Source: Candidatus Omnitrophota bacterium (GTDB lineage: Bacteria; Omnitrophota; Gorgyraeia; Gygaellales; Profunditerraquicolaceae). Taken from it: DNA of 64,000 bases. The stretch is taken from the NCBI GenBank assembly GCA_016867115.1, contig VGKG01000003.1, positions 673 through 64,672 on the forward strand. Direction: 5' to 3'. Positions 2,775 to 21,730 of this stretch are shown in pieces. Each line of letters starts with the position of its first letter. Positions within the stretch are counted from its first letter, which is position 1. A model generated the notes under the pieces. The model searched no databases. It had not been told where the DNA came from and was given only the letters and a program-made list of their open reading frames with translations. The translations under genes and the position numbers were made by a program.

Positions 2775-3286
2775 TAGAACATGAACTCCTATTCTTAGGG
2801 CTCCTCAGAGAAGGCCCCAAGCACGGCTACGACATCAAAATAAAGATCCGCGAGATCCTCTCCATATTCGCCGGCATTGACCTGAAATCAGTATATTACC
2901 CCTTAAGGATATTAGAGAAAAGAGGCCTGGTCACCAAGCGCAAAATCAAATCCGGCCGCCGGCCGGAACGCATAGTCTATTGCCTCACGCCTGAGGGAAG
3001 CGCCCGTTTTGAAGAACTATTAAGCGAAAGCTTCCTTAATTTCAAGCGGCCGCAATTCAGCCTGGACCTGAGCCTTTATTTCCTGAATTACGTAAGACCT
3101 CAGACCGCAAAGAGGAGGCTGCGCGCCAGGATGCTCCTCCTGAAGCGGCTTTTGCGCAGCCTGCATCAGGCAGTAAATGCCTCCCGTAAGGAGAAACCCC
3201 TTACCCTGACCTATATCCTGGAACATGACCTGCAGATGGTTGAAACTGAGCTTAAGTTCTTAGAGAATCTGGTGAGAAACTTTTAA
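2771..3286 (+). CDS. PadR-family transcriptional regulator
   Basis: N-terminal wHTH HGYDIKIKIREI...VYYPLRILEKRGLV matches PadR. Its start overlaps the accA stop. Confidence 0.65.
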   Translation: MIEHELLFLGLLREGPKHGYDIKIKIREILSIFAGIDLKSVYYPLRILEKRGLVTKRKIKSGRRPERIVYCLTPEGSARFEELLSESFLNFKRPQFSLDLSLYFLNYVRPQTAKRRLRARMLLLKRLLRSLHQAVNASRKEKPLTLTYILEHDLQMVETELKFLENLVRNF

Positions 3287-3505
3287 ATGCTTCCTTTTAT
3301 TGCCGCAACAGGAATTATTATCGGCGTCTTCCTCGCCCTCAAACCTGCCCGGGCAATAGAAGCGCAGAGAAGGTTTTACCTGCATATTAACTGGAAGATC
3401 GAGCCGGTCTCTATGGAAAAAGAGCTGCGTAATACCCGCCTCATGGGACTGTTTCTCACCGGCATTTCGATACTCATCTTCATCCTCGCATTTCTGAAAG
3501 CCTAA
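3287..3505 (+). CDS. small hypothetical membrane protein
   Basis: 72 aa with two hydrophobic segments. Start abuts the PadR stop. No recognisable family. Confidence 0.3.
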   Translation: MLPFIAATGIIIGVFLALKPARAIEAQRRFYLHINWKIEPVSMEKELRNTRLMGLFLTGISILIFILAFLKA

Positions 3506-3570
3506 CCCGTAGACCAGACCCGAAATTACCTTGACAGCGCATAATAAATATGGCATATTTTTAATGATAT

Positions 3571-3595
3571 TAATATTTAACTTACTTAAATATTA
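3571..3595. promoter_or_regulatory. perfect 10-bp inverted repeat (TAATATTTAA-cttac-TTAAATATTA), putative MarR operator
   Basis: Read directly. Sits between a TTGACA hexamer (3531-3536) and the SD/ATG of the MarR gene at 3595. Confidence 0.4.
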
Positions 3596-4053
3596 TGGAG
3601 GTAAATATGTTTCAGTCAAAGATCGAGGTTTTTGCCGACAGGCTTAACGCCGTACTGCCGGTGATCATCAAGGAGTTTTCCCGGCGCCAGACAAATGAAC
3701 TGTATAGGGGCCACATCAGCCTGGCGCAGTTTTTGATCCTGGAGTTCCTGCAGCGCGAGGGTGAATCCCGGATGTCCGCCCTGGCCCGCGCGATGCATGT
3801 GACTACCGCGGCGATGACCGGTTTTATCGAGAGGCTGGTTCGGGACGGCTACGCCCTCAGGCAATCAGACCCGGACGACAGACGCGTCATCAGGATAAGG
3901 CTTACCCCCAAGGGAGCCGGCCTTGTGCATAAGATCAATCACCAGCGGCGCACGATGGTCATAAAGATCTTCGGCAAGATCTCGGAAAGGGAGCGCCATG
4001 ATTATCTGAAGATCCTCACGCACATAAAAGAGATCCTGGCTGAAGAGGCTTAA
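3595..4053 (+). CDS. MarR-family transcriptional regulator
   Basis: wHTH LAQFLILEFLQREGESRMSALARAMHVTTAAMTGFIERLVRDGYALRQSDPDDRRVIRIRLTPKG. Confidence 0.85.
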   Translation: MEVNMFQSKIEVFADRLNAVLPVIIKEFSRRQTNELYRGHISLAQFLILEFLQREGESRMSALARAMHVTTAAMTGFIERLVRDGYALRQSDPDDRRVIRIRLTPKGAGLVHKINHQRRTMVIKIFGKISERERHDYLKILTHIKEILAEEA

Positions 4054-4060
4054 AAGGCGA

Positions 4061-5329
4061 ATGAAGAAGATAATTTTATTATTCAGCATCTTTATATCGT
4101 TCCTGCCGGTAGCCTTACGGGCAGAGGAGATCCTGCTTACTCCCGATGAGGCGGTTGCGCTGTGCCTGCGGGAGAACCGCGACGTGCTCTTAAGGGCCGA
4201 GGATATCAAGAAGGCCAAGGCAAAACTTGCCGAGGCAAATGCCGGCCTCTTTCCCAGCGTCACCGCCAGCTTCACCTGGCAGGATGTGCGCGGGCTTTAT
4301 GATAAGGACCTTCCGGAGAAGGAGAGCCACATCGGCGCAAAACAGTATTTTTATCAGGGCGGAAGGGTGATCAATACCATCAGGTACAGCCAGCAGGGGA
4401 TAGAGGTCGCACGGGCGCTTCTGGATAAGACAAAAATCGAGACGGCCTTAAACGTCAGAAGGTCGTTTTATACTCTTTTATTGGCTGTGGAGTTCAGCCG
4501 CCTAAACAGCGAGATCCTGAAAAACACCAAAGGGCATCTTAGGTATCTAGAAGAGCGCTATAAGTCCGGAGAAGCTTCGGAATCGGATATTTTACAGATC
4601 AAGCAGTCCCTGGCCGCGATAGAAGACGCTTATGAGACCTCTTTGAACCAGGCGGATGCAAGCGAGGCGCTCCTTAAAAGTCTGCTTTTTCTCGACGAAA
4701 AAGTAAAGATAATTCCTGCGGCCCGGTTCGAATATACGCCCGAAGAGGTCGCTTATGACGAAGGCCTGTTAAAGGCGATGAAGTCAAGGCCGGAGATCAG
4801 GCAGTTTGAAGCCCAGGAAAAGCAGTCGAAATACGCGATTGAAATAGCTAAGGCTGACGGAAGGCCCAGTATCTACGCCTCTTGGGACTATTATAGCTCA
4901 TCAACAACTGTTCTTACCTTTTCGCCGTCGCGCGCCTGGCAGGATTACAATATAATCGGAGTGACTTTTTCCTGGCCCATCTTTGACGGCTGGGCGACCA
5001 AAGCCAAGGTGGAGCAGGCGATCGTAGACTTAAAGGAGGCCCAGCTTTTAAAAGAAAAGACGGTCAAGGATATCGCCACAGAACTGAAAGAGGCGTACCT
5101 GGGCATGAAGGATGCGATATCAGGCATCCGGGCATCCGAGGCAGACATCCTGCGTTTTCAGGATAACCTCTCGGTAGTGAAAGAGAAGAATAAGGCAGGC
5201 ATTGCCAGCTACCTGGACCTGGACGATGCGCGCCTGAAATATAACGTCTCACAGTTCAATCAGCAGCAGGCGGTCTATGATTACATCGTCGCCAAGGCCA
5301 CTTTCGAAAAGGCAACCGGAGGGCTCTGA
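4061..5329 (+). CDS. TolC-family outer membrane efflux protein
   Basis: 422 aa with signal peptide and two repeated halves of OEP-type coiled-coil/beta segments. First gene of the efflux operon. Confidence 0.8.
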   Translation: MKKIILLFSIFISFLPVALRAEEILLTPDEAVALCLRENRDVLLRAEDIKKAKAKLAEANAGLFPSVTASFTWQDVRGLYDKDLPEKESHIGAKQYFYQGGRVINTIRYSQQGIEVARALLDKTKIETALNVRRSFYTLLLAVEFSRLNSEILKNTKGHLRYLEERYKSGEASESDILQIKQSLAAIEDAYETSLNQADASEALLKSLLFLDEKVKIIPAARFEYTPEEVAYDEGLLKAMKSRPEIRQFEAQEKQSKYAIEIAKADGRPSIYASWDYYSSSTTVLTFSPSRAWQDYNIIGVTFSWPIFDGWATKAKVEQAIVDLKEAQLLKEKTVKDIATELKEAYLGMKDAISGIRASEADILRFQDNLSVVKEKNKAGIASYLDLDDARLKYNVSQFNQQQAVYDYIVAKATFEKATGGL

Positions 5330-6204
5330 TGAAAAACTATAAACTTGTTTTTCTTATACTTTTAAGTCTTTTTACTTTCGGCTGTCAGCCTAAAGCGGAG
5401 AAACAGAAGGCAGAGGAGAGCATTCCGGTAAGGGTGATCAAGGTAGGCCTGCAGGAATTGGCCGAGACCATCGACTACGTGGGTAATATCAGGGCTAAAG
5501 ACGAAGCCCTGATCTATCCCAAGGTGAGCGGTAAGATCATCGAAAAGGTCAAGGAGGACGGCGCGCCCGTGAATAAGGGCGAGGTGATCCTTTATATCGA
5601 CCGCGACGAGGTGGGGCTGAAGTTCGAGCGGGCCCCGGTTGAGAGTACGCTTACCGGGACCATAGGCAGGGTCTACGTGGATATCGGAGAGAATGTGGAC
5701 CCGCAGACCGCAGTCGCCCTGGTCGTGGATATGCACGAGGTAAAGACTGACCTTGATATCCCGGAAAAGTACCTGGCCAAGGTCTCGCTTGGACAGACGG
5801 CCAGGATCAGCGTGGATGCCTATCCCGCAGAAGAGTTTATGGGGAAGGTGACCAAGATCAGCCCGGTAGTGGATATGAATACCCGCAGCTCCCCCATTGA
5901 GATCACCGTGGCTAATCCCGGGCACCGGCTGAAATCCGGCATGTTTGCCAAGGTCAGCCTCATCGTACGCGAGAAAAAAGAGGTGCCGGTGATCATGAAA
6001 GAGGCGGTGATCGGCAAAGAGCCTGACCAGTGTGTCTTTGTGATCGAAGATAACAAGGCGCTTTTAAAGAAGATAAGCCTGGGTATCCGTCAGGGGCCGT
6101 ATTTTGAGGTAAGGCAGGGGTTAAAAGAAGGGGATTTAGTGGTAGTGATGGGCCAGCAGCGGCTTACCGAGGGCAGTCCCGTCAAGATAGAGGAGAATAA
6201 ATAA
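5329..6204 (+). CDS. efflux RND periplasmic adaptor (membrane fusion protein, HlyD family)
   Basis: Lipoprotein-like signal peptide plus biotinyl/lipoyl-like and beta-barrel MFP motifs. Translationally coupled (ATGA overlaps). Confidence 0.85.
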   Translation: MKNYKLVFLILLSLFTFGCQPKAEKQKAEESIPVRVIKVGLQELAETIDYVGNIRAKDEALIYPKVSGKIIEKVKEDGAPVNKGEVILYIDRDEVGLKFERAPVESTLTGTIGRVYVDIGENVDPQTAVALVVDMHEVKTDLDIPEKYLAKVSLGQTARISVDAYPAEEFMGKVTKISPVVDMNTRSSPIEITVANPGHRLKSGMFAKVSLIVREKKEVPVIMKEAVIGKEPDQCVFVIEDNKALLKKISLGIRQGPYFEVRQGLKEGDLVVVMGQQRLTEGSPVKIEENK

Positions 6205-10084: not shown

Positions 10085-11089
10085 ATGAAGATCGCGGTTA
10101 TCGGAGCAGGCGCAATCGGCGCCTTGGTTGCAGGGTATCTTAAAGCAAAAGATGCGGATGTATCTTTGGTGGCGCGGCCGGATTCTTTAGCCGTAATTAA
10201 GGATCAGGGGCTTGCGGTCTCCGGGGTAAGAGGAGACTTAAAGGTCAAGATCAGCGCTGAGCAGGCCTTAAGTTACCAGCCGGAACTGGTAATTTTAGCT
10301 ACCAAGACCCAGGACCTAGAGAACGCCCTGAAGCAGAATTTAAATTTCCTTAAGGATGCCACAATCTTGACTACACAAAACGGCGTAGCTGCAGACGGCA
10401 TAGTCGCCAGATACCTTCCGGAAGAAAAAATCATTTCTAGTATTGTCATGTTCGGCGCCACGCTCCTTGAGCCGGTAAGGATCGTGCATAATTTTGAGGG
10501 GAGCTGGATCATGGGGAGCGCTTTTGGCCAAAACGACGCCGAAGTCGTCAGGATAAGCGAGGTACTTAACCGCGCCTTTCCGACAATCGTCGCCGAAGAT
10601 ATCCGGGGGATGAAATACCTGAAGATCTTTGTGAACGCCAATAACTGCATCCCGGCGATATTAGGCACCAGCATGCAGGAGGCCTTTAGCAACCCCCGGA
10701 TCAGCCGGATCAGTATCGCTATCTGGAAGGAAGGCCTGGATATCGTAGGCAGATCCGGGATCAGCCTGACCTCTTTGCCGGATTTTCCCCTGGAACGCCT
10801 GACCGCCCTGGCCGCGCTGCCACTGGATGAGGCGGCTAAGATCTTTTCCGGCATCATGAGCAATTTAAGCAAAGAGCCGCTTTATGGCTCTATCCTCCAG
10901 AGCATCAAGAGAGGCAGGACTTCAGAAATAGATTACATTAACGGCGAGTTCAGCCGGCTGGCCGAGACGCAGAATTTAGCAGCGCCTTTAAATAAAAAAT
11001 TAGTGGAGATGGTGCACAGCGTCGAGCAGAATAAGAAGTTTTTCACGCCGGATGAGCTGGTCAGCTCAACCCGCGAGCTGATAAATTAA
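10085..11089 (+). CDS. ApbA/PanE-family 2-dehydropantoate 2-reductase-like NAD(P)H oxidoreductase
   Basis: N-terminal Rossmann MKIAVIGAGAIGALVAGYL. 334 aa. Ketopantoate-reductase family architecture. Confidence 0.75.
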   Translation: MKIAVIGAGAIGALVAGYLKAKDADVSLVARPDSLAVIKDQGLAVSGVRGDLKVKISAEQALSYQPELVILATKTQDLENALKQNLNFLKDATILTTQNGVAADGIVARYLPEEKIISSIVMFGATLLEPVRIVHNFEGSWIMGSAFGQNDAEVVRISEVLNRAFPTIVAEDIRGMKYLKIFVNANNCIPAILGTSMQEAFSNPRISRISIAIWKEGLDIVGRSGISLTSLPDFPLERLTALAALPLDEAAKIFSGIMSNLSKEPLYGSILQSIKRGRTSEIDYINGEFSRLAETQNLAAPLNKKLVEMVHSVEQNKKFFTPDELVSSTRELIN

Positions 11090-11098
11090 GGAGTAAAG

Positions 11099-11698
11099 AT
11101 GATCAAATCACCTTTTCCCAAGTTAAAATTGACTGTCATGAATGTTTACGGGCCCTGTTATCACGGCTACAAGGTGGGCGATGAACTGATCCTGGATGAT
11201 TTTACCCACGGCCCTAAATATTTTTGTCTGGGCCTGGCGCATGCGCTCTTTCCCGTAGCCTATGCCTTAAGTTTCGGGGCAAAGTTCCCTTTCCGGGACA
11301 ACCAGCGTTCGTTACTGGTCACCTGTCCTGACGGAGGCAAGCTTGAGTTTAAAGCCGAGGTCCTGGATAAGGAGAGGGATGTCGAAAACGTGCCTAAGGA
11401 CCCTGAACACAGGGGCCCGAACCCCAAGAAGATGATCATTGAGGTGGTCAAGGCAAAAGGAAAATGCACCTTCGGCTATAAAGTCGGCGATAAGTGGGAG
11501 ACGCAAGGATTAAAATGCATCCCCGGATTTTGCGGAGCGGCGTTTCACACCGCGTTCCCTGCGCTCTTTGCCCTGAATTTCGGGGCGAAGTTTTTCTTTA
11601 TGCAGGATCCGGATTCTATCGATACAGTCACCTGCCCCGACGGAGGGAATATCATATTTAAGGTAACGCGGGCAAAAGAAGAGGCCAAGGAGAAATAG
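11099..11698 (+). CDS. TIGR04076-family protein, tandemly duplicated domain
   Basis: Two homologous halves, each with C-x-x-G-YKVGD ... C ... A(H/F)xxFP..AL.FGAKF.F ... CPDGG..FK. Compare FCLGLAHALFPVAYALSFGAKFPF...TCPDGG with FCGAAFHTAFPALFALNFGAKFFF...TCPDGG. Confidence 0.6.
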   Translation: MIKSPFPKLKLTVMNVYGPCYHGYKVGDELILDDFTHGPKYFCLGLAHALFPVAYALSFGAKFPFRDNQRSLLVTCPDGGKLEFKAEVLDKERDVENVPKDPEHRGPNPKKMIIEVVKAKGKCTFGYKVGDKWETQGLKCIPGFCGAAFHTAFPALFALNFGAKFFFMQDPDSIDTVTCPDGGNIIFKVTRAKEEAKEK

Positions 11699-11701
11699 TC
11701 A

Positions 11702-12964
11702 ATGCAAAAACGTAGAGTAGTGATCACTGGGATAGGCGTAATCTCGCCTAACGGTATCGGCAAGCCCGCCGTCTATCAGGCGATGATCTCCGGTGTGTCC
11801 GGGGTGAAGCGGGTGGACGGTTTTGATGTCTCCATATTTAATACCAAGATTGCTGCCGAGGCGCGCGATTTTGACCCCTTTAAGCTGGGCCTCACCCACG
11901 AAGAAGTGATGCGTATGGACCGCTACGTGCAGTTCGGCGTGGTGGCTGGCGATATGGCCATAAAGGATAGCGGCCTGGATTTTTCAAAAGAAGACCCCGA
12001 GCGCATCGGCGTCTGCCTGGCTAACGCCATCTGCGGCACCAAATACATGGAAGAGGAGTTCGCCCTGGTTACTGACGACGGCAAGAAACCGATCGACCCC
12101 TCAAAGGTGCGGCCTGATCTTTACGATGCGGCGATGTTCAATACGCCCTCAATTGAGATCAGCGCGCGTTACGGTTTTAAGGGTATCTGCGATACTCTCT
12201 CCACGGGTTGCACTGCCGGAACGGATTCTCTGGGGTTTGGCCTTGAGACGATCCAGGACGGCGAGCAAGATGTCATGATCTGCGGCGCTGCCGAAGCGCC
12301 GATCACTCCGATCACTTTTGGCGCCTTTGACGTGGTAAGTGTTCTTTCAGTGCGTAACGATACTCCGGAAGCGGCATCACGACCATTTGATAACCGGCGC
12401 GACGGTTTTGTCCTCTCCGAAGGCGCGGGGATCCTGGTCCTTGAAGAACTGGATCATGCCCTGAAACGCAATGCCCGCATTTATTGCGAGGTCCTCGGCT
12501 TTGGCACCAGCTGCAACGCCTTCCACATGACTGACCTTCCTTCTGACGGAGGGGCGATGGTAAGTTGCATCAGCCTCGGCTTGAAAGACGCAGGGGTTAA
12601 GCCGGATGAGGTCGATTATATCAGCGCCCACGGCTCATCCACCAGGATGAACGACATCTTTGAGACCAATGCCTACAAGACGATCTTCGGCGAGTATGCC
12701 TATAAGCTGCCGATCAGTTCTCTTAAGTCCATGATCGGACATCCCCTGGCCGCGGCTAACGCCGTGGAGATGACTGTCTGTGCGATGATCTTCCAGAAGG
12801 ATATCCTTCCTCCGACGATAAACCAGGAGGAGAAAGACCCTTTATGCGATCTGGATTATATCCCAAACTCAGCCCGGAAACAGAAGGTAAACACAATACT
12901 TAAGACCTCAAGCGGATTTTCGGGGATACATTCCTCACTTATATTAAGGAGATACAATGGGTAA
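11702..12964 (+). CDS. beta-ketoacyl synthase (KS-alpha / FabF-like) with intact Cys-His-His triad
   Basis: ITGIGVISP N-terminus, active-site TGCTAG, AHGSSTRMND and SMIGHPLAAA histidines. Confidence 0.85.
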   Translation: MQKRRVVITGIGVISPNGIGKPAVYQAMISGVSGVKRVDGFDVSIFNTKIAAEARDFDPFKLGLTHEEVMRMDRYVQFGVVAGDMAIKDSGLDFSKEDPERIGVCLANAICGTKYMEEEFALVTDDGKKPIDPSKVRPDLYDAAMFNTPSIEISARYGFKGICDTLSTGCTAGTDSLGFGLETIQDGEQDVMICGAAEAPITPITFGAFDVVSVLSVRNDTPEAASRPFDNRRDGFVLSEGAGILVLEELDHALKRNARIYCEVLGFGTSCNAFHMTDLPSDGGAMVSCISLGLKDAGVKPDEVDYISAHGSSTRMNDIFETNAYKTIFGEYAYKLPISSLKSMIGHPLAAANAVEMTVCAMIFQKDILPPTINQEEKDPLCDLDYIPNSARKQKVNTILKTSSGFSGIHSSLILRRYNG

Positions 12965-14192
12965 GCAGATCGCAGTCACCGGTATAGGCGTAGTCAGTCC
13001 TTCGGGCATAGGCAAGAGGCAGCTCTGGGCGAATATTAAATCCGGACGCCCTTTTATCAAGGAGATTACTCGTTTCGACGCTTCCAAATACCCCAGTCAC
13101 ATCGCAGGGCAAATAGATGAACTGGAAAAATATAGCAACATTTCAGAGCGGCTGCTCAAAAAGATCGACGCCTTCTCGCACATGGCCCTAATCGCTTCGG
13201 AGCTTGCCCTGCAAGATGCCGGCATTGATATTAAGAAAGAGGACCCGAACCTGGTCGGCATATTTTTAGGCAATGCCTTAGGCGGCTGGCTTTATGCCGA
13301 GACAGAGCTACGCGATATGTATATTGAAGGCCGCGAAGGGGTCTCGCCTTACATGGCCTCTGCCTGGTTTCCGGCTGCGCCACAGGGCCAGGTTTCTATT
13401 TACTACGGGATAAAGGGATTCAGCAAGACCGTAGTCGCAGACAGGGCAAGCTCCCTTATGGCCATCGGATATGCCAGAAAGGTCCTAAGCAAGGATAAAT
13501 TGAACATGATCTTAGCCGGCGGCATGGAAGCTCCGGTCACCCCCTACGCGCTTTTATGCTGCAACACCTATGGCTCTCTTTCTACGGATAATGCTCATCC
13601 ACAAGCCGCTTACCGGCCCTTTGATAAAAAACGTAGCGGCTTTGTCATTGGCGAGGGCGCGGGGATCGTCGTCATGGAAGGATTAGAGCGGGTGAGGGCA
13701 AGAGGGGCAAATATTCAGGCCCTGATCACCGGTTACGGCGCAACCTGCGACGGAATAGACAGGATCAATCCTGCTTCTGACGGGAAAGAATTAGCCCGGG
13801 CAATCCAGATAGCGCTTAGTGATGCGGGCATAGGCCCTGAGGGAATCGATTATATCAGCCTGGACGGTATTGCCGTTGGTCTCTGGGATAGCACCGAAGT
13901 AAAGGCGATCAAGAGTGTCTTCGGCAGCCGCGCTAAAGAGATACCGGTAAGCTGCCCGAAATCCATGTTCGGCAATCTCCTGGGCGCCTCCGGTGCCCTG
14001 GATATGATCATCACTATTTCGGCTATGGAAAACAGCCTTATTCCTCCGACTATCAATTTGGATGAGCCGGCAGAAACCGGCCTGAATTATATAGGTAAGG
14101 AAGCCAGACCCCATAAAATAAATAAAGCCCTGATCATCTCCCGCGGCAGAGGCGGGATCAATTCGGCTTTAGTGGTTGAGAAAGGAGCATAA
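12957..14192 (+). CDS. KS-like partner lacking the catalytic triad (chain-length-factor / KS-beta-like)
   Basis: KS fold (VTGIGVVSP...), but the Cys position reads ADRASS, AHGTxT is replaced by SLDGIAVG, and GH is replaced by GNLLGASG. An 8-nt overlap with the upstream KS points to translational coupling. Confidence 0.75.
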   Translation: MGKQIAVTGIGVVSPSGIGKRQLWANIKSGRPFIKEITRFDASKYPSHIAGQIDELEKYSNISERLLKKIDAFSHMALIASELALQDAGIDIKKEDPNLVGIFLGNALGGWLYAETELRDMYIEGREGVSPYMASAWFPAAPQGQVSIYYGIKGFSKTVVADRASSLMAIGYARKVLSKDKLNMILAGGMEAPVTPYALLCCNTYGSLSTDNAHPQAAYRPFDKKRSGFVIGEGAGIVVMEGLERVRARGANIQALITGYGATCDGIDRINPASDGKELARAIQIALSDAGIGPEGIDYISLDGIAVGLWDSTEVKAIKSVFGSRAKEIPVSCPKSMFGNLLGASGALDMIITISAMENSLIPPTINLDEPAETGLNYIGKEARPHKINKALIISRGRGGINSALVVEKGA

Positions 14193-14194
14193 GA

Positions 14195-15655
14195 ATGAAG
14201 ATTTTATTCGTCATGCCTAAAGTAGGCGCCTGGGCAACGCACGGAATCCACCGTTCACCGAACCAGTTGTATGCGCACTGGGCAGCTTATGCGCGCGAAA
14301 AAGGTTATACGGACGTCTCGGTCATCGACGGAAGGGCGCTTGAGATCCCCATGGACCAGTTGATCGAACAGGTCAAAGCCAAGAATCCGGATATCGTGGT
14401 CATGGGCGAGCAGATCCATGGTTACGGCGGCTACGGGGTCTTACGCCATTTCCGGGACGCGGCTATCGGGATCAAAAAAGTATTACCTAGAACAAAGATA
14501 ATCCTGGGCGGGCTATGGTATTCGGCGATGCCTGTGCCGACCCTGGAAGAGATCCCCGCGGTGGATTTTGTGGTCATGGGCGAAGAAGAGTCTTTCGGCG
14601 ACCTGATCGAGGCGATAGATAAGAATAAGCCTCTTAAAGATGTGGGTGGAGTCACCTCGCGCATCGACGGCTCAATCGTCATGGGGCCGCATAAGCCGCT
14701 GATGACTGACCTGGATAAACTGCCTTTACCGGCATACGACTTATTCCCCATGGATAAGTATGTGGGGCACACCTACTGGAAGCCCTTTGTAGATATGATC
14801 ACCTCGCGCGGCTGCCCTTCTGCCTGCACCTTCTGCTATGAATGGGACCAGTTTGACCCGCGCTCGCCGTCAGACTTCCTGAAATGGCGCGCAAAATCAC
14901 CGGAGAGGGTCATCGAAGAGCTGGAAGTGCTGCATAAGAAATACGGGGTAAAGGTCGTGGTGATCCAGGACGATAATTTTAACGTTGATCCTGCTAGGGT
15001 GAAGAGGTTCTGTGAGCTGAAGAAGCAGAAGAACATCCCGACTAAATGGGTCTCCTTAGGCAGGGCAGTGGACTGGGTGAATTGCGAGTCGATCCTGCCC
15101 CTAATGAAAGAAACGGGCTTGTTTATGGGAGTATTCGGGATAGAAGTCACCACACAGGATGAGCTGAAGAGGATTGCTAAAGGAACCACCATCGAGCAGA
15201 TCAAGAAGACTATCGAGATCCTGCGCCGTAACGATATCGCTATTGTCGCCGATATCATGATCGGGTTTGACTACGATACCGAGGCGATCATCAAGCAGCG
15301 CTTTGAGTTTGCTGATGCTGTGGACCCGGACGTCTTGTGGATCGGCTATGTGACTCCGGCACCCAACTCGCCGATGTGGCGCATTTCGCTAAAGAAAAAC
15401 TGGATCGATCCCAAGAAGGTGGACTTCAGCACCTGGGATTTCCTGCATCCGGTGATCCCCACGGATCATCTCACTACCGAGGAGCTGGGAAGGCTTGGCG
15501 CCTGGTGCATGCGCGAGTTCTTCTCAAAGCCGGGAAGGATCAACCGGATCATGGAGAGCAATTTTGACCCCCTGGCCAAGCTCTGTTTTCAGGATGTCAT
15601 GGCCGGAGTAGGCAAGTGGGAAGCAGCCGCCACCAAAGGCGAAGTACAGATCTAG
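14195..15655 (+). CDS. B12-binding-domain radical SAM enzyme
   Basis: N-terminal cobalamin-binding-like domain followed by a CPSACTFC (Cx3Cx2C) radical SAM cluster motif. 486 aa. Confidence 0.85.
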   Translation: MKILFVMPKVGAWATHGIHRSPNQLYAHWAAYAREKGYTDVSVIDGRALEIPMDQLIEQVKAKNPDIVVMGEQIHGYGGYGVLRHFRDAAIGIKKVLPRTKIILGGLWYSAMPVPTLEEIPAVDFVVMGEEESFGDLIEAIDKNKPLKDVGGVTSRIDGSIVMGPHKPLMTDLDKLPLPAYDLFPMDKYVGHTYWKPFVDMITSRGCPSACTFCYEWDQFDPRSPSDFLKWRAKSPERVIEELEVLHKKYGVKVVVIQDDNFNVDPARVKRFCELKKQKNIPTKWVSLGRAVDWVNCESILPLMKETGLFMGVFGIEVTTQDELKRIAKGTTIEQIKKTIEILRRNDIAIVADIMIGFDYDTEAIIKQRFEFADAVDPDVLWIGYVTPAPNSPMWRISLKKNWIDPKKVDFSTWDFLHPVIPTDHLTTEELGRLGAWCMREFFSKPGRINRIMESNFDPLAKLCFQDVMAGVGKWEAAATKGEVQI

Positions 15656-15663
15656 ACCGGTCA

Positions 15664-15732
15664 CGGGACAGATCCCGCCAGACCTATTACTTGCGCTGCT
15701 AAGGGACCTGTCCCGACCGCGAGGAGGTAAAG
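15664..15732 (+). promoter_or_regulatory. structured 5' leader element, copy A (upstream of ACP)
   Basis: Near-identical to 15973-16046. Contains GGGACAG...CTGTCCC inverted arms and ends in GACCGCGAGGAGGTA with SD. Read directly. Confidence 0.45.
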
Positions 15733-15957
15733 ATGAAAGAGAGGATCAGAGAAGTCTTAAGTAATCTCTTGAAAGTAAAACCCGAAGAGCTTAAGGACGA
15801 TGTTTCTTTACAGGATTCTATCGGCGTAGACTCGACCGAAATGGTTGAGACAGTGATTGCGCTGGAGAAGGCCTTCGGGAAGAAGTTAAGCACCAAGGAG
15901 ATCACCAAGTTCTCTTCGATAAGCGATATCGAAAAAGTAATTCAATCTAAAGCTTAG
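15733..15957 (+). CDS. acyl carrier protein
   Basis: 74 aa with the GVDSTEMVE phosphopantetheine-attachment serine motif. Confidence 0.85.
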   Translation: MKERIREVLSNLLKVKPEELKDDVSLQDSIGVDSTEMVETVIALEKAFGKKLSTKEITKFSSISDIEKVIQSKA

Positions 15958-15972
15958 GACCATATGAGACAT

Positions 15973-16046
15973 GTCGCGGGACAGATCCCGCCAGAGTTAA
16001 TACCTGCGGTACTAAGGGACCTGTCCCGACCGCGAGGAGGTACTCA
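15973..16046 (+). promoter_or_regulatory. structured 5' leader element, copy B (upstream of cyclase gene)
   Basis: Shares the identical 31-nt 3' segment CTAAGGGACCTGTCCCGACCGCGAGGAGGTA and 5' GGGACAGATCCCGCCAGA with copy A. A TTG start follows. Confidence 0.45.
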
Positions 16047-16880
16047 TTGAAGATAATCGACTTAAGCCTGCCAATCGACGACAAGGCCTTTGAGGTCCAC
16101 CGTGTGGATATTGAGCGGGTCTCACATTCGGCGGGAGTAGAAAAGTTCAATCGGGTAATCATGGGCAAGACCCTGAAGGGCAGGCTTCAGTATCTTTTAG
16201 GTAAGCGCATCCTGAAGAAAGAAGACCTTCCGGATGAGGAGTTCCTTTCTCTCGAAGTAATCCATTCTCCGGTGCACATCGGCACACACCTGGATTATTC
16301 TTTCCACTACGGCTCAAAGTCAGAGGGCCGCCCCGCCAAGACCGCGGAGGAGATCCCGCTTGAGTGGTGTTATGCTGACGGCGTGAAACTGGACCTGACG
16401 CATAAGAAGCCAAACGAAGTGGTCAAAGCCCCGGACCTGGAGCAGGCCTTAAAAATGATCAATTATACGCTTAAGCATAATGACATTGTGCTCCTGCATA
16501 CAGGTGCGGATAAACTCTTTGGTTCTGCGAGATACTTCTCTGAATACCCCGGAATAGACATTTCCGCGATAGATTATCTCTTAGACCGCGGGGTCAAGAT
16601 TTTCGGCGTGGACACCATGGGCATTGACCGGCCTTACAAGTTCATGCTTAAGGAGTTCCTGGAGGAGAAAAAGCCGCTTTATCCGGCGCACTTTTACGGA
16701 AGGAAGAGAGAGTTTATCCATATCGAGCGCCTAAGCAATCTGGATAAGCTGCCGGCAGCCGGCTTTAAAGTCATCTGTTTTCCGGTGAAGATAAAATATA
16801 CCGGCGCTGCCTGGTCCAGGGTAGTGGCAGTACTAAGCGAGATAAGCCCTGAACGCGAAATGAGCCAAAAGGAGGTTTGA
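16047..16880 (+). CDS. PF04199 'putative cyclase' family protein (kynurenine-formamidase-like fold)
   Basis: HSPVHIGTHLDYSFHYG metal-binding motif (HxGTHxDxPxH-like). TTG start directly after the leader SD. Confidence 0.7.
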   Translation: MKIIDLSLPIDDKAFEVHRVDIERVSHSAGVEKFNRVIMGKTLKGRLQYLLGKRILKKEDLPDEEFLSLEVIHSPVHIGTHLDYSFHYGSKSEGRPAKTAEEIPLEWCYADGVKLDLTHKKPNEVVKAPDLEQALKMINYTLKHNDIVLLHTGADKLFGSARYFSEYPGIDISAIDYLLDRGVKIFGVDTMGIDRPYKFMLKEFLEEKKPLYPAHFYGRKREFIHIERLSNLDKLPAAGFKVICFPVKIKYTGAAWSRVVAVLSEISPEREMSQKEV

Positions 16881-16881
16881 G

Positions 16882-17421
16882 ATGGGACATACCTGCAATT
16901 CTATTATCATCAACGCCCCTTACGACTTAGTCTTTGATATCTCAAATGACATCCCGCGCTGGACAGAATTATTCGGCACAGAATACAAAAAGGCAGAGGT
17001 ACTGGAGAAAAAAGACAATAAGATCACCTTCCGCCTCACTGATGAGGACGATAAGTCCTGGGTCTCCTGGCGCCTCCTTTTTAAAGACAAATACTTCGCC
17101 TATGCCCAGCGCCATGAACCGTTATTCCCTTTTAAATACATGAAGATTGTTTGGCTCTATACCCCTAAGCCCGAGGGTGTGGCTTTGGCTACTGCGCAGA
17201 AGCGCGTACCGGCCGGTCCGATAAGGCCGGGTGAAGGAGGCCAAACCACGGACCCCTGTCCTGTTGAGATGGCCTGGATCCAGCACTTTGAGATGGATGA
17301 GAAGGCTAAGTTCAATGACCAGCAGATCGAGGGTTTTATTAATGAAGGCTCCCGCCACAACCTGAAGATCTTTAAAGAGATCATCGAGCGGGAAGCAGCT
17401 ACGGCTAAAGTTAAGAGTTAA
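16882..17421 (+). CDS. SRPBCC-superfamily polyketide cyclase/aromatase-like protein
   Basis: 179 aa with a START/Bet v1-like N-terminal pattern (IIINAPYDLVFDISNDIPRW...), immediately downstream of the cyclase. Confidence 0.65.
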   Translation: MGHTCNSIIINAPYDLVFDISNDIPRWTELFGTEYKKAEVLEKKDNKITFRLTDEDDKSWVSWRLLFKDKYFAYAQRHEPLFPFKYMKIVWLYTPKPEGVALATAQKRVPAGPIRPGEGGQTTDPCPVEMAWIQHFEMDEKAKFNDQQIEGFINEGSRHNLKIFKEIIEREAATAKVKS

Positions 17422-17430
17422 GCGGATCTG

Positions 17431-18552
17431 GTGAAAAAAAGCACATTTCTCATCCTTTGTCTTGAAGGCGCGATCCTCTCCTTCAATGTCGCCGCAGCCG
17501 CTGCCTTAGTTCCTTCGATCGCCAGGGATTTTGCTCTTTCTCAGTTCGTGGTAGGCAAAATGATCTGGCTGTACATGTTTCCGTACGGCATAGCTGCTTT
17601 AATTTATGGTCCCCTGGTAAGGGCGATTGATGCAAAGAAGATAGAACTGGTTTGCATATTTTTCTTTTCTCTATCAAATCTTCTAGCCGCCCTATCCGGA
17701 AACATTTATACTTGTTTCATTGCCCGGTTTTTTATGGGACTTTTTGGCGCTTCAGTCATACCGCTTGGACTAGTATTAATTGCAAATCATATTGAGCAGC
17801 AGAGGCGCGGTAAGTATGTGGGGATTTTTTTTAGTGCAACCTTTGTGGCTTCGCTCTTAGGCTTATTTTTAAGTGGTATCATTTCCTGGCGACTGATTTA
17901 TCTTATCCCTGCAATTGCCGGCCTTTTTCTTACCGGTATCATTTATCTTTATCTGCCCAGTTTCAAAGGAGATGTTACGGGCTTTAAGATAAATTATTTT
18001 GCTGCCCTGGGTGATAAAAGAATGCTTTTTATCTTTGCCTATATATTTGTTATCAGCCTTCTTTATCACGGCATCCAGCAGTGGCTGGGAGTTTATTTCT
18101 CAGACAGGTTCGGCTTTAGCCAGTTTTTGATCAGCGCACTCATTACTCTGACCAGCTTAAGCGGTATTTTCGGAGAGGCCTTTGGCGGAGTGCTGGCAGA
18201 TAGGTTCGGCAGGATACGCACTGCGAATCTAGGCGTTCTTTTGATGGTTATCAGCGCATTGCTTTTGATCTTGAAGCTCCCTTTTGTTCTTCTGGCGCTG
18301 TTAATGATCGTCTGGGGTTTAGGCTGGACCTTTAATCATGCCGGGATATCTACGGTGTTGACAGACCTGCCTCGGGAGTTCTTGAATGAGGCAGCGAGTT
18401 TAAACAGCAGCGTGCGTTTTATTTCAGGCGGCGTGGGTGCTGCGCTCGGCGGAGTGCTGATGCAGAGGGGTTTTAGCGTCGGGTTTGTGGTTTTCGGCGT
18501 GAGCCTGGCCGCATTGTTATTTTTAAGCAAAACATTGGAAAGCGGGAGGTAG
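17431..18552 (+). CDS. MFS transporter
   Basis: 373 aa with about 12 TM segments and the MFS signature around GPLVRAIDAKK. Confidence 0.8.
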   Translation: MKKSTFLILCLEGAILSFNVAAAAALVPSIARDFALSQFVVGKMIWLYMFPYGIAALIYGPLVRAIDAKKIELVCIFFFSLSNLLAALSGNIYTCFIARFFMGLFGASVIPLGLVLIANHIEQQRRGKYVGIFFSATFVASLLGLFLSGIISWRLIYLIPAIAGLFLTGIIYLYLPSFKGDVTGFKINYFAALGDKRMLFIFAYIFVISLLYHGIQQWLGVYFSDRFGFSQFLISALITLTSLSGIFGEAFGGVLADRFGRIRTANLGVLLMVISALLLILKLPFVLLALLMIVWGLGWTFNHAGISTVLTDLPREFLNEAASLNSSVRFISGGVGAALGGVLMQRGFSVGFVVFGVSLAALLFLSKTLESGR

Positions 18553-18554
18553 TC

Positions 18555-19328
18555 ATGGAGGATTTAAAAGGTAAAGTAGCCATAGTCACCGGTGCCAGCC
18601 GCGGGATAGGTAAGGCGCTTGCCTCTACCGCCGCAAGTTTAGGGATTAATCTAGCCATTGCCGCGCGCCAGGAAGGGCCGTTAAAAGAGACCGCGGATGA
18701 GATCGCCAAAAAATATAAGGTCGAGGTCCTGGCTGTACCCTGCGACGTGACGAAGCTGGGTGATCTTGAGAACCTGGTCAATAAGACCAGGGAAAGATTC
18801 GGCAAAATAGATATCCTGATCAATAATGCCGGAGTCTCCAGCCAGTACCCCTTTGACAAGCAGCCGTTAGAGGACTTTGAGAAGCTGGCGCACACGAATT
18901 ACTTAGGCTATGTGCGGCTCATCCGCCTGGTGATCAACGAGATGGTCGAAAGAAAATCCGGGGCCATCATCAATATGGTCTCAGGCTCGACCCTTTGCGA
19001 TCCCCTGCCCAGGAACTTTATCGTCTATAGTTCCTTAAAGGTGGGGCTGCGAGCTTTTTCTAAAGGCCTCTTCTGGGAGCTGCGCGACCACGGGATCAAG
19101 GTCACCTCGATCCTGCCCGGGGTAACGGATACGGACCTGACCGGAAAATTAAGCGAGATCACTGCCGATGCCGGGCGCCTGATGACTACCGAGGCGATCG
19201 AGAATGCGGTGAGGTTTGCCCTGACTGTCCCGGCAAATGTCTGTCCGTTAGAGATTGCGGTGATCAACCAGCAGACGCCCTGGACTGCGCCTGTAATCCC
19301 CTATAAACAAGCTCACCCGGAGAAATAA
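18555..19328 (+). CDS. SDR-family oxidoreductase (ketoreductase-like)
   Basis: GKVAIVTGASRGIGKA (TGxxxGxG), NNAG, catalytic YSSLK. Confidence 0.85.
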   Translation: MEDLKGKVAIVTGASRGIGKALASTAASLGINLAIAARQEGPLKETADEIAKKYKVEVLAVPCDVTKLGDLENLVNKTRERFGKIDILINNAGVSSQYPFDKQPLEDFEKLAHTNYLGYVRLIRLVINEMVERKSGAIINMVSGSTLCDPLPRNFIVYSSLKVGLRAFSKGLFWELRDHGIKVTSILPGVTDTDLTGKLSEITADAGRLMTTEAIENAVRFALTVPANVCPLEIAVINQQTPWTAPVIPYKQAHPEK

Positions 19329-19330
19329 CG

Positions 19331-19750
19331 ATGGATAAGCGCGACCTGAAGAACTTAAAAAAGAGGTACCTGGTCTGGCTCTATAAGAACACCAAAGAGG
19401 CCTTTGACCGGTATGAGCGTAAGTTCACCCAGTTAGATATTGATAAGTTTATGCTCGCGGAGATGGAGAAGGAGGTAGAAAGCTCCTTCATGCCTGCCGA
19501 GCTTGAAGGAGTGGCTAAGTTTATCGAAGACTTCCGCAATTACATCGAAGAAAAAGAAAAATCCTGCCTTGAGCTCAAATATCAGGATAAGAAGATCAAT
19601 CCCGAGTTCCTTTTCCTGGATATGAAACTGAGGGCCGTAGAGAAGGCGATTCAGAGCGAGCTGGGGAGTAAAGCCCTGGATGAGATAAAGGAGCTTTACC
19701 AGCAGGAGATGCTTAAAAGGATCATGACTGAGCGCGAAGAAAAACGTTAA
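19331..19750 (+). CDS. hypothetical charged/coiled-coil protein
   Basis: 139 aa, K/E-rich, in the operon, no recognisable family. Confidence 0.4.
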   Translation: MDKRDLKNLKKRYLVWLYKNTKEAFDRYERKFTQLDIDKFMLAEMEKEVESSFMPAELEGVAKFIEDFRNYIEEKEKSCLELKYQDKKINPEFLFLDMKLRAVEKAIQSELGSKALDEIKELYQQEMLKRIMTEREEKR

Positions 19751-20562
19751 TGGCGACAACTAAAGCAGCCTATCAAATCTTTATTCTTCTTGCGCTTATC
19801 GCTGGCATCATCATGTATTTTAGATTCATTGAGCGCCGCACCCTCTTTTTCCCGGCCAAGGAGTTTGATTATACGCCGGCAGCCCTTAAGCTGGAATACG
19901 AAGAAGTAAGTTTTAAGACCAAAGATAATGTAGAGATCAATGCCTGGTTTGTTCCGGCCAGGGATGCTAAGTTTACCGTGCTCTTTGCTCACGGCAATGC
20001 CGGAAATATCAGCCACCGCGTGGAAAAGATCGATTTTTTCCATGAGTTAGGTTTGAATGTCCTGATCTTTGATTACCGGGGATATGGCAAGAGCAGGGGT
20101 TCGCCTTCTGAAAAGGGTTTATATAAAGATGCCCAGGCTTCCTATGAATATCTTTTATCGCGCGGCATTAAGCCGGATGAGATCATCGGCTACGGAGAGT
20201 CTATCGGAGGTGCGGTGATCATTGATCTTGGCTCAAGGAATAAACTGACAGCCCTGATCTCTGACAGCACGCCCAGCTCCGCAAAGGACATGGTCAGGAT
20301 CATTTATCCCTTTCTGCCTTACTGGGTGTTTTCTGTGCGCATGGACTCTTTGAGCAAGGTGAAAGCGATCCACTACCCTAAGCTTTTTATCCATAGCGTA
20401 AATGATGAGATCGTGCCTTTTAAATTAGGGAAGAAGCTTTTTGAATCCGCGCCCCTGCCTAAGGAATTCCTGCAGATCCACGGAGGGCACAACAGTTGCT
20501 TTTTTGAATCAGAGGATGTGTTAAAAGAAAAAGTCAGCGCTTTTCTAAAAGGGCTTAAATAA
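19750..20562 (+). CDS. alpha/beta hydrolase (S9/BAAT-like)
   Basis: N-terminal TM segment, HGNAG oxyanion region, GYGESIGG nucleophile elbow, C-terminal His. Confidence 0.75.
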   Translation: MATTKAAYQIFILLALIAGIIMYFRFIERRTLFFPAKEFDYTPAALKLEYEEVSFKTKDNVEINAWFVPARDAKFTVLFAHGNAGNISHRVEKIDFFHELGLNVLIFDYRGYGKSRGSPSEKGLYKDAQASYEYLLSRGIKPDEIIGYGESIGGAVIIDLGSRNKLTALISDSTPSSAKDMVRIIYPFLPYWVFSVRMDSLSKVKAIHYPKLFIHSVNDEIVPFKLGKKLFESAPLPKEFLQIHGGHNSCFFESEDVLKEKVSAFLKGLK

Positions 20563-21479
20563 TGAAGATAATCGACGCCCACAGCCATTGGCTGCCGGAT
20601 GAGATCATCAATAACGCCCATTTTTTTCATAAGGGCTGGGCAGATATTGAGGCGCAGGTCAAGGCAATGCAGGAGGCAGGCATTGACCGGGCAGTCCTGA
20701 CTTATCCTACCTCGGATGCGCACTTAAAATTAGGCAGTATCAGCCTGGTAGCCAGGATCTATAATGATAATGTCGCTAAGATCCTTAAGCGCTATCCGGA
20801 TAAGTTTATCGGTGCGGCTATTATCCCGGTGGATAACGTTACGGGCATGGTGGATGAATTGCGCCGCGCCACGGAAGAGCTGGGATTTAAGGCGCTCTCT
20901 TTAGCCTCAAGCTACAACGGCAAATACCCGGATGATGCGATATTTATGCCTCTCTATAAAGAGGCGCAAGCAAAGAATATCCCGGTCTTTGTGCATTCGC
21001 AGATCGTCAACCCCATCGGTTTTGAACGGGTCAATGACCCCCTACTTACTCCGGTAGTCGAATACATCTTTGACATGACCATGTGTATCGGCAAGCTCTT
21101 AATGGCAGATATTTTTCGGGATTATCCTCAGCTGAAATTCATCTTTGCCAATTTCGGCGGGGCTACTGCATTCTTGCAGCACCGTTTTGACGCTACTTAC
21201 AATATGCTCAGGGGCATAAACTTTGTCAAAGACTTAAAGGGCCAGCCCACGCAGTTCTTAAAGAATATTTATGTGGATACCGGAGGCGACAGGATTAAGG
21301 CTAATTTTACGCTTGCCCTTGAACTCCTCGGGCCGCAGCATATTTTATGGGGCAGCGACTGGCCGGCAAAGAAGGATGTTGCATCGGGCATCAAAGTGGT
21401 AGAGGAACTAGGATTAAGCGAGCAGGATAAAGAGAATATTTTAGGTGGGAATATAGAGAGGTTGTTTACCGTTCTTTAA
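20562..21479 (+). CDS. amidohydrolase-2 (ACMSD/LigW-type metal-dependent hydrolase/decarboxylase) family protein
   Basis: MKIIDAHSHWLPDE start with TIM-barrel amidohydrolase_2 pattern. Last gene of the operon. Confidence 0.75.
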   Translation: MKIIDAHSHWLPDEIINNAHFFHKGWADIEAQVKAMQEAGIDRAVLTYPTSDAHLKLGSISLVARIYNDNVAKILKRYPDKFIGAAIIPVDNVTGMVDELRRATEELGFKALSLASSYNGKYPDDAIFMPLYKEAQAKNIPVFVHSQIVNPIGFERVNDPLLTPVVEYIFDMTMCIGKLLMADIFRDYPQLKFIFANFGGATAFLQHRFDATYNMLRGINFVKDLKGQPTQFLKNIYVDTGGDRIKANFTLALELLGPQHILWGSDWPAKKDVASGIKVVEELGLSEQDKENILGGNIERLFTVL

Positions 21480-21730
21480 TGCCCCTGTCGGTTTTCTCGC
21501 TCAGGTCGATTTTGCCCACAACTGCTTTTATACAGGGCACGCCAATGATCTTTCGCATTTCGGCGGCTGAAGAACTCGTCGCATTTGCTCTAGCAAATGC
21601 TCCTCAGGCAGCTTCAGCCGTGCCTGTTTTGTCGCTTCGCTCCACAGGCATTCCCTCAATGCTCAAGCTCCATTGGCTAAAATCGACATTCGCTCGAAAA
21701 TCCGCCAGGTGCATTTATGATATTTAACAA

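Follow-up and report, generated by a model that had tools for sequence, protein, structure and literature searches.

Why does a biosynthetic operon of an Omnitrophota bacterium carry the same hairpin twice, once before its acyl carrier protein (ACP) gene and again before the cyclase gene that follows? The question was raised by a first-pass annotation of a 64-kb stretch of DNA (hereafter, the window), which had described a duplicated, structured leader at these two sites and had considered both a dedicated cis-element and a local duplication scar. Our analyses of the window, of orthologous operons and of metagenomic contigs establish that the duplicated hairpin is real and non-random. With moderate confidence, we read it as an intergenic palindrome of the REP/REPIN-like kind, specific to this lineage, which was copied, together with a Shine–Dalgarno (SD) sequence, to a second junction of the operon, and which would form an intercistronic stem-loop in the mRNA, an effect that is predicted.

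The Repeat and Its Predicted Structure

The repeat is the longest direct repeat of the window, with 87 nt aligning at 84% identity and without gaps, in the same orientation and at a spacing of 313 nt (Table 1). The resemblance of about 80% first seen between 15664-15732 and 15973-16046 holds over a longer stretch. Two blocks are identical between the copies: CGGGACAGATCCCGCCAGA, which at 19 nt is one nucleotide longer than first described, and CTAAGGGACCTGTCCCGACCGCGAGGAGGTA, whose 31 nt had been given correctly. CGGGACAGATCCCGCCAGA and the core of the CTAAGGGACCTGTCCCGACCGCGAGGAGGTA block each occur exactly twice in the window even when up to three mismatches are allowed, where 0.03 and 0.39 matches, respectively, would be expected by chance. 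A third copy of the element was not found in the 64 kb, and both copies lie in one operon. The 14 differences between the copies had been thought to be confined to about 20 central nucleotides; six do fall in the 16-nt central loop segment, but three lie in the 11-nt 5' flank and five around the start codons. The 5' flanks are accordingly identical at 8 of 11 positions and the loop segments at 10 of 16. On both sides the copies share sequence beyond the arms that are common to the wider family described below, namely AGAC..GTC.C upstream and GCGAGGAGGTA downstream.

Table 1. Features around the two repeat copies (positions in the window).
Feature	Position	Strand	Remarks
B12-binding radical SAM gene (BchE/HpnJ-like)	14195..15655	+	Pfam PF04055 and PF02310, NCBIfam matches; called as a gene on JGI contigs
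Repeat copy 1	15654..15740	+	5' flank AGACCGGTCAC, hairpin, SD, ATG, first ACP codons; reference copy in repeat search
Hairpin 1	15658..15719	+	Core arms 15664-15676/15703-15715; apical region 26 nt; RNAfold and inverted-repeat search
ACP SD, GAGGAGG	15721..15727	+	5 nt before ATG at 15733
Acyl carrier protein gene, 74 aa	15733..15957	+	PF00550; bracketed by both repeat copies
Repeat copy 2	15967..16053	+	5' flank AGACATGTCGC, hairpin, copied SD, TTG, first cyclase codons; 84% identical to copy 1, no gaps
Hairpin 2	15971..16032	+	Core arms 15977-15989/16016-16028, same as hairpin 1; weaker outer stem; 16-nt loop segment diverged
Cyclase SD, GAGGAGG	16034..16040	+	6 nt before TTG at 16047; SD survey
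PF04199 'putative cyclase' gene, TTG start	16047..16880	+	Pfam; translation aligns from residue 1 with homologues

The surrounding genes form a tightly packed, co-directional block (10085-21727) in which all junctions measure at most 9 nt save the two that hold the repeat, at 77 and 89 nt. They include an ApbA-like reductase, TIGR04076, two FabF-like ketosynthases (KS), the B12 radical SAM (rSAM) gene, the ACP, the PF04199 cyclase, SRPBCC, MFS and SDR genes, and others; the ACP and the cyclase had been recognized as the neighbors of the repeat at first pass, and matches to PF00550 and PF04199 bear this out. The stop codon of the rSAM gene, TAG at 15653-15655, overlaps the first bases of repeat copy 1. 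An identical ACP is encoded on three JGI lake-metagenome contigs, which are 100% identical over the region, and the cyclase homologues that carry a source name come from Omnitrophota/Omnitrophica. 'Ladderane-like' clusters in Omnitrophota genomes assembled from metagenomes have been mentioned before (PMC9902471). The window also holds MarR and PadR genes, at 2771-4053, about 12 kb away and in another gene group, and no candidate regulator is linked to the element.

Each copy contains two 13-nt arms, 92% complementary and 26 nt apart, and RNAfold predicts a hairpin of 12-16 bp in each, where a closing stem of about 11 bp had been proposed. In copy 1 the pairing comprises 5+7+4 = 16 bp (outer CGGUC/GACCG, core GGGACAG/CUGUCCC and, beyond an A.C mismatch, UCCC/GGGA), while the outer 5 bp are weakened in copy 2. 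The 64-nt cores fold at -29.2 kcal/mol in copy 1 (z -4.27, with none of 200 shuffles as good) and at -25.1 kcal/mol in copy 2 (z -3.03, with 1 of 200 as good); the folds with flanks (87 nt) reach a z of just -2.2 and -2.0, respectively. The opposite strand is predicted to fold better than the mRNA strand (-34.6 vs -29.5 kcal/mol), whose stem contains the A.C mismatch, and the fold therefore provides no argument for selection on an mRNA hairpin. The structure is made of two inverted half-sites 26 nt apart, CGGGA-CAGA-TCCCG and GGGAC-CT-GTCCC, each of them near-palindromic in its own right (CGGGACAGATCCCG, GGGACCTGTCCCG).

The predicted stems end 1-2 nt 5' of the SD. A strong GAGGAGG before both starts had been reported at first pass, and it is indeed there, at the slightly shorter distances of 5 and 6 nt rather than 6-8 nt. 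The further proposal that the hairpin leaves this SD single-stranded fits copy 1, with a mean predicted probability of being unpaired of 0.93, but is not robust for copy 2 (0.53), where a second fold of equal energy competes; nor is the predicted accessibility robust in longer contexts. This uncertain accessibility in copy 2 and the A.C mismatch of the mRNA strand both speak against a function selected at the level of RNA. A promoter and terminator scan detected no promoter-like or terminator-like site at the element, and the stem is followed by CGAGGAGG in place of the U-run that, with a GC-rich stem, marks an intrinsic terminator.

A Lineage-Specific Element in a Conserved Operon

Is the hairpin a property of the operon or of this genome? 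More than 80 Omnitrophota species share the gene order KS-KS-B12 rSAM-ACP-cyclase-SRPBCC, and we compared the window with 80 orthologous-operon loci from species-representative genomes and four from its closest metagenomic relatives. Searches of these 84 loci with an nhmmer profile and a covariance model (R1) found the window's element in none of them; weak profile or model matches at L081 and L065 reflect GGGAC-type stems, not homology. In the 80 species the rSAM–ACP and ACP–cyclase spacers range from 0 to 936 nt, about half of them being 20 nt or shorter. The nearest relative, L084, whose ACP and cyclase are 96% and 89% identical in amino acid sequence to those of the window, has hairpin-free spacers of 20 and 21 nt, reading TAG-TTATGAGGAGGTAAGGGAAG-ATG before the ACP and lacking an SD in the 21 nt before the cyclase. 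In the sister lineage L085 a different, 133-nt double hairpin precedes the ACP, and in L087 a ParE toxin-antitoxin pair sits between ACP and cyclase. The absence of the element from relatives and the empty site in L084 point to an insertion specific to this lineage, placed after the rSAM stop codon and ahead of a pre-existing ACP SD.

What relatives do have in common is a tendency to expand the same junctions with palindromes of their own. Expansion to at least 40 nt occurs at all junctions of the operon, in 11-70% of loci (KS2–rSAM 46%, rSAM–ACP 61%, ACP–cyclase 37%, MFS–SDR 38%), and 74 of 112 expanded spacers fold at z < -2; the expanded spacers of other species hold unrelated, species-specific palindromes. 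Different hairpins occupy the rSAM–ACP spacer in L085, L016, L054, L057, L012 and L069. In seven loci (L016, L040, L009, L014, L027, L043 and L081) one species-specific palindrome recurs in two or three junctions of a single operon. L016 and L040 offer a parallel: in both of these sister species a two-tier hairpin of about 85 nt stands before the rSAM gene and again before the ACP, each time with an SD behind it; as in the window, the outer arms of its copies are identical and the interior has diverged. In the family formed by L016, L040 and L054 the stems are kept through two compensatory base-pair changes. The words GGGACAG/CTGTCCC are 19-fold enriched in the rSAM–ACP spacer (11 in 5,048 nt vs 67 in 592,060 nt). 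A conserved ancestral hairpin in this spacer was considered and rejected, since the carriers are dispersed over the cyclase tree, next to sisters that have no hairpin, and their elements come from different sequence families. This biosynthetic operon is very conserved in Omnitrophota, and its junctions are hot spots for species-specific hairpins.

The SD sequences suggest how the second copy arose. In nearly all loci the ACP, rSAM and SRPBCC genes have an SD of at least 5 nt. The cyclase has an SD match shorter than 5 nt in 74 of 81 orthologous loci, and the sole 7-nt match (AGGAGGT) is that of the window; its start codon is ATG in 76 of the 81 loci and TTG in two. The ACP SD is ancestral in that the hairpin-free L084 has the same GAGGAGGTAA, and in the window the cyclase and ACP SDs are the same throughout GCGAGGAGGTA, flanks included. 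Given cyclase orthologues without an SD and a cyclase SD identical to the ancestral one of the ACP, the downstream copy is best read as a duplicate of the hairpin plus the ACP SD. Judged from sequence, then, the cyclase SD is derived and the ACP SD ancestral, and the duplication most likely ran from the rSAM–ACP copy to the ACP–cyclase copy, by local duplication or gene conversion. The arrangement can be accounted for without a tandem duplication of hairpin and ACP and subsequent loss of the second ACP, of which no remnant is seen.

Does the element exist outside the operon? A metagenome scan for GGGACAGNTCCC-N20-45-GGGANCTGTCCC matched at least 119 contigs. On one of these, L139, CGGGACAGATCCCG...AAGGGACCTGTCCCGACC lies between lysS and a lolC-like gene, with 10 further bases identical to the window's element beyond the search pattern, a loop unrelated to that of the window and a predicted fold of -26.7 kcal/mol (z -4.15). 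The LysS of this contig is best matched by Omnitrophota proteins; the 14 kb contain one related copy, which stands before an unrelated gene that has no SD. L139 is the only significant nhmmer profile match outside the window, across the 84 Omnitrophota loci and the 119 metagenome loci among the matches listed. Besides L139, the matches listed include several multi-copy families of nested palindromes, each with an outer stem, the 12-nt core GGGACAGGTCCC and an inner stem. Among these same matches, 31 loci exceed two core 12-mers, the extra cores number 41 against an expectation of 0.35, G:C pairing at the N position occurs in 91 of 128 matches, and one multi-core contig is of Bacillaceae. In control scans restricted to viral contigs, the real pattern found one match, and composition-matched hairpins one and none. 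No close relative of the window's genome was detected with window proteins as queries among the listed metagenome matches. The presence of the same arms in L139 makes them a feature of the family that is not tied to this operon. The search for further copies, which had been recommended at first pass, yielded one homologue outside the operon and no other clear relative among the loci searched. The idea of a dedicated cis-element of the operon is not supported by these comparisons: neither the 80 orthologous operons nor the nearest relatives contain the element, Rfam has no match to it, its arms recur at the unrelated lysS/lolC-like junction, and in other species equivalent palindromes of unrelated sequence occupy all junctions of the operon. 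The element is not a conserved regulatory leader.

Alternative Readings of the Duplicated Hairpin

We propose that the window contains two paralogous copies of an intergenic palindromic repeat of about 62 nt, built from the inverted half-sites CGGGACAGATCCCG and GGGACCTGTCCCG. The first copy would have been acquired, in this lineage, between the rSAM stop codon and the ancestral SD of the ACP. The second, between ACP and cyclase, most likely descends from the first through a local duplication or a gene-conversion event that brought GCGAGGAGGTA along and provided the cyclase with a strong SD. Because the operon is co-transcribed, both copies are expected to form stem-loops of 12-16 bp in the mRNA. 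By analogy with other intercistronic hairpins, such stems could act as processing sites, as barriers to 3'-5' exonucleases or, after cleavage, as 5' caps, giving the ACP segment a stability of its own, and spacers of 77 and 89 nt may break translational coupling, leaving ACP and cyclase each to initiate from its own SD. On the same analogy, a role as intercistronic stabilizer or decoupler is the most plausible RNA-level effect of the hairpins. We also infer the mobility, or REP-like origin, of the element.

The distribution of differences between the copies is informative here. Arms and SD differ at 0 of 49 positions and the loop segment at 6 of 16 (37%), while 49 of 115 four-fold degenerate sites (43%) differ between the window and L084. 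Identity at all 49 sites, set against this four-fold divergence, indicates constraint or gene conversion. Several histories are possible: the duplication may be old, with arms and SD held by selection or concerted evolution; both copies may stem from a family in which the source itself has conserved arms; or the loop may be hypermutable. Arms this alike could also be due to gene conversion, or to a conserved master copy that inserted twice, and not to a function in situ. A plain neutral scar is the reading least compatible with this arm and loop pattern.

Among the alternatives such a scar is the likeliest, although we think it unlikely. It would stem from a one-off local copying of the rSAM–ACP spacer, for example by template switching at the palindrome, and would have neither function nor family. 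A single event of this kind agrees with the presence of just two copies in 64 kb, 313 nt apart and in the same orientation, with shared flanks that reach past the family-level arms, and with the lineage specificity of the element; loop segments that are still identical at 10 of 16 positions also mark the two copies as each other's closest relatives. The first-pass mention of a local duplication scar is half right: the downstream copy does look local and carried the ACP SD with it, but a homologue exists elsewhere, the predicted structure is stable and the arms have not decayed. Neutral decay would not spare 49 sites at the observed four-fold divergence; the homologous arms sit at an unrelated locus in another Omnitrophota contig (L139), and an analogous hairpin pair is kept, with compensatory changes, in the sister species L016 and L040.

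More doubtful is a history of two independent insertions of a dispersed, mobile family of the REPIN or MITE type, in which the SD flank was added later by short-tract gene conversion or convergent selection for a strong SD. Conserved arms with diverged loops are what members of a mobile family look like, and L139 combines the same arms with an unrelated loop; the rSAM–ACP spacer is, moreover, a recurrent insertion site in the six loci named above, and its 19-fold enrichment in GGGACAG/CTGTCCC is scattered over the tree. Two insertions, however, require an extra event for the 11 identical flanking bases, which include the ancestral ACP SD and precede a gene that is SD-less in 74 of 81 loci, and they leave the match of the 5' flanks at 8 of 11 positions to be accounted for as well. 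They must also be reconciled with the lack of a third copy in 64 kb and of a transposase among ten mid-size open reading frames of the window.

A bolder extension, which we regard as improbable, is that hairpin and SD together constitute a portable ribosome-binding cassette that is copied between junctions, converting coupled genes into independently initiated ones and bracketing the ACP cistron for stability, and that the 12-nt core GGGACAGGTCCC marks a cross-phylum superfamily of nested palindromes with a shared mobilizing or binding protein. The GGGACAGGTCCC core is found in Omnitrophota and in one Bacillaceae contig, in at least eight distinct multi-copy families. A search of the literature for the core strings returned primer-type coincidences only.

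Could the two copies instead be a regulatory RNA, be it a riboswitch, a thermosensor or a protein-binding leader, that co-regulates the translation of ACP and cyclase by switching between the long hairpin, with the SD free, and two short hairpins with the loop paired to the SD? The palindromic half-sites make two folds possible, and both copies lie directly before an SD. In copy 2, loop bases ACCUGCGGU can pair with ACCGCGAGG(U), covering part of the SD, in an alternative fold that equals the long hairpin in energy (-29.4 vs -28.2 kcal/mol). In copy 1, however, the anti-SD-like loop sequence is weaker, the alternative fold costing 3 kcal/mol, and this sequence belongs to the stretch in which the copies have diverged. 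The comparison with Rfam that had been suggested at first pass gave no match at the element, over 14000-18000, with any of 4227 models at E-values up to 10, with two unrelated weak matches elsewhere, and at the gathering threshold the whole window yielded two tRNAs and nothing else. Together with the lack of conservation in any of the 80 orthologous operons or the closest relatives, and with the same arms standing before an unrelated, SD-less gene in L139, this renders a dedicated regulatory RNA highly improbable.

Equally remote is a role at the level of DNA, with GAC-N2-GTC palindromes serving as operators to which a dimeric regulator or a nucleoid protein would bind, or as gyrase or IHF sites of the kind proposed for REPs: each copy does contain three perfect or imperfect palindromes of this type (GACCGGTC/GACATGTC, GGGACAGATCCC, GGGACCTGTCCC), a CG-to-AT change between the copies leaves the 5' one symmetric, and the core GGGACNNGTCCC recurs in many unrelated repeat families among the matches listed, but the location is internal to an operon and nothing promoter-like is near, no candidate regulator is linked (the MarR and PadR genes belonging to the other gene group), and the symmetric change is expected by chance roughly 1 time in 3.

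If the reading as a copied intergenic palindrome is right, the locus is a piece of routine genome natural history, a lineage-specific palindromic repeat duplicated inside an operon. It would also exemplify how repeats remodel translation signals, the cyclase having a strong SD and a TTG start unlike its orthologues, and would be relevant to expressing the 'ladderane-like' KS/rSAM/ACP/cyclase cluster or to interpreting its metatranscriptomes.

Relation to Known Repeats and Intercistronic Hairpins

How does the element compare with known palindromic repeats? REPs and REPINs consist of two inverted short palindromes with a spacer between them and are extragenic, located between co-directional open reading frames, with conserved arms and a variable spacer (PMC3116915, PMC3733652). 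The element resembles them (Bertels & Rainey 2011, PMC3116915; Di Nocera et al. 2013, PMC3733652) in lying just downstream of a coding region between co-directional genes, in having two inverted palindromic half-sites that, with their spacer, form a longer hairpin in single-stranded DNA or mRNA, and in combining conserved arms with a varying spacer and a related copy at an unrelated locus of another genome (L139). Omnitrophota relatives, too, carry species-specific families, some of them GTAG-tagged (L065, L081). It differs in its shorter half-sites (12-14 nt vs 20-40 nt in classical REPs), in having just two copies in 64 kb, both in one operon, and in the duplicated SD flank of one copy, which the family-level element does not include. 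Neither a GTAG nor a CGTC tag precedes the stem, where the window has TCAC and TCGC and L139 has GAGC; no RAYT or IS200-type transposase is encoded among ten window open reading frames of 140-195 aa, and neither a GGGAC nor a GTCCC consensus appears in the REP survey.

Hairpin-forming MITEs such as Correia/NEMIS of Neisseria, with its RNase III processing, ERIC/IRU, SMAG and RUP/BOX are likewise found next to coding sequences inside transcription units, and their robust stem-loops, of the kind predicted here, can stabilize or destabilize flanking mRNA (PMC3733652). The element has terminal inverted repeats, in the form of its 13-nt, 92% complementary arms and, in copy 1, the outer CGGTC/GACCG. 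Compared with these MITEs (PMC3733652) it is shorter, at about 62 nt, and its borders show no target-site duplication relative to the empty site of L084 (TAG-TTAT-GAGGAGG). With the cis-regulatory families of Rfam (riboswitches, leaders and thermoregulators) it shares a position directly upstream of an SD and the possibility of two alternative folds; unlike them, it matches none of the 4227 models and is not conserved across orthologous operons.

The hairpins of REPs and MITEs are known to stabilize or process co-transcribed mRNA. Intercistronic stem-loops set differential mRNA stability in the malE-malF REP of E. coli (Higgins/Newbury) and in the puf operon of Rhodobacter. Relative to those systems, the hairpins of the window lie 5' of each SD, and their mRNA-strand stem contains an A.C mismatch; their effect is put forward purely by analogy. 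The likeness lies in the arrangement, in which hairpins predicted to be stable bracket a single cistron, the ACP, whose product is expected to be needed in the highest amount.

Palindromic elements in operon spacers

The operon spacers of relatives carry palindromic hairpins of several kinds. A classical-looking GTAG-tagged repetitive extragenic palindrome (REP) hairpin occurs in two copies at one Omnitrophota locus, L065, together with a variant, and GTAGGGACTGTCCCC-type elements lie at two operon junctions of another, L081. A two-tier hairpin family of ~85 nt occupies the spacers between the second ketosynthase and B12 radical SAM genes and between the radical SAM and ACP genes; sister species have retained it, and two of its base pairs show compensatory changes. 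Coordinates are collected in the table.

Features of the window and of related loci
Feature	Location	Strand	Sequence or remark
Tightly packed operon	window 10085-21727		
Perfect 8-nt palindrome just 5' of hairpin copy 1	window 15655-15662		GACCGGTC
Perfect 8-nt palindrome just 5' of hairpin copy 2	window 15968-15975		GACATGTC
tRNA gene	window 29298-29380	-	Rfam, gathering threshold
tRNA gene	window 29524-29596	+	Rfam, gathering threshold
GTAG-tagged REP hairpin, two copies	L065:2186-2212 and 6059-6085		GTAGGGACAGGTTT(A/G)AAACCTGTCCCTAC
Variant of this hairpin	L065:3691-3773		GTAGGGGCGGGTTTAAAACCCACCCCTAC; radical SAM-ACP spacer
Two-tier hairpin family	L016:2112-2192 and 3670-3752; same in L040		GGGACGGTTCT ... 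AGAACCGTCCC
Further members of this family	L054:3526-3612; L057:~3690-3730		
Nested palindromes with 12-nt core (examples)	L158:546-592, 3189-3235, 4872-4918; L174:1382-1433		
ParE-type toxin-antitoxin pair	L087:2184-3000		between ACP and cyclase genes

The words GGGACAG/CTGTCCC are enriched 19-fold in a single spacer type of the Omnitrophota loci with the orthologous operon (L004-L087), the radical SAM-ACP spacer (11 in 5,048 nt versus 67 in 592,060 nt overall), and are absent from the 4,389 nt of their ACP-cyclase spacers. A conserved element was considered as the source and rejected: the loci carrying the words in this spacer are scattered over the tree, and the words were therefore acquired recurrently. 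In the window itself, the small palindromes preceding the two hairpins differ at two adjacent positions with symmetry preserved, an outcome that is probably not meaningful, since it is expected by chance roughly 1 time in 3.

A core shared among metagenome repeat families

Across the metagenome loci matched by the hairpin pattern (L088-L206), at least eight distinct multi-copy families of nested palindromes have a 12-nt core in common, GGGACAGGTCCC / GGGACCTGTCCC. In each family the core lies between an outer and an inner stem, and the 3' outer flank resembles the 5' inner stem. The core recurs across phyla, its hosts including a member of Omnitrophota (L139) and one of Bacillaceae (L174).

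Translation start of the cyclase gene

In 74 of 81 loci (L004-L087), no recognisable Shine-Dalgarno sequence precedes the PF04199 cyclase gene (for example, L084:321-344 and L006:~3990-4003). The cyclase start often lies 0-20 nt downstream of the ACP stop, and the neighbouring ACP, radical SAM and SRPBCC genes almost always have a Shine-Dalgarno sequence of at least 5 nt. Together, these sequence features suggest that cyclase initiation is either translationally coupled to ACP or Shine-Dalgarno-independent. In L087, one of the closest metagenomic relatives, the toxin-antitoxin insertion separating the two genes has its own promoter-like AT-rich leader.

The operon and its distribution

The operon encodes an ApbA-like reductase, a TIGR04076 protein, two FabF-like ketosynthases, a BchE/HpnJ-like B12 radical SAM enzyme, ACP, the PF04199 cyclase, and SRPBCC, MFS, SDR and hydrolase proteins. 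Elsewhere in the window, the two tRNA genes, divergently oriented, are the sole Rfam matches at the gathering threshold. More than 80 Omnitrophota species keep the operon, at ~70-90% amino acid identity. Some loci bear other labels in their record titles, 'Methanosarcinales archaeon' for L077 and 'uncultured Planctomycetales/Planctomycetia' for others (L009, L011, L043 and others among those affected); the source records of these loci are likely mis-binned or only coarsely classified. Genome mining has named 'ladderane-like' clusters in Omnitrophota (PMC9902471), and the operon of the window may correspond to these clusters.
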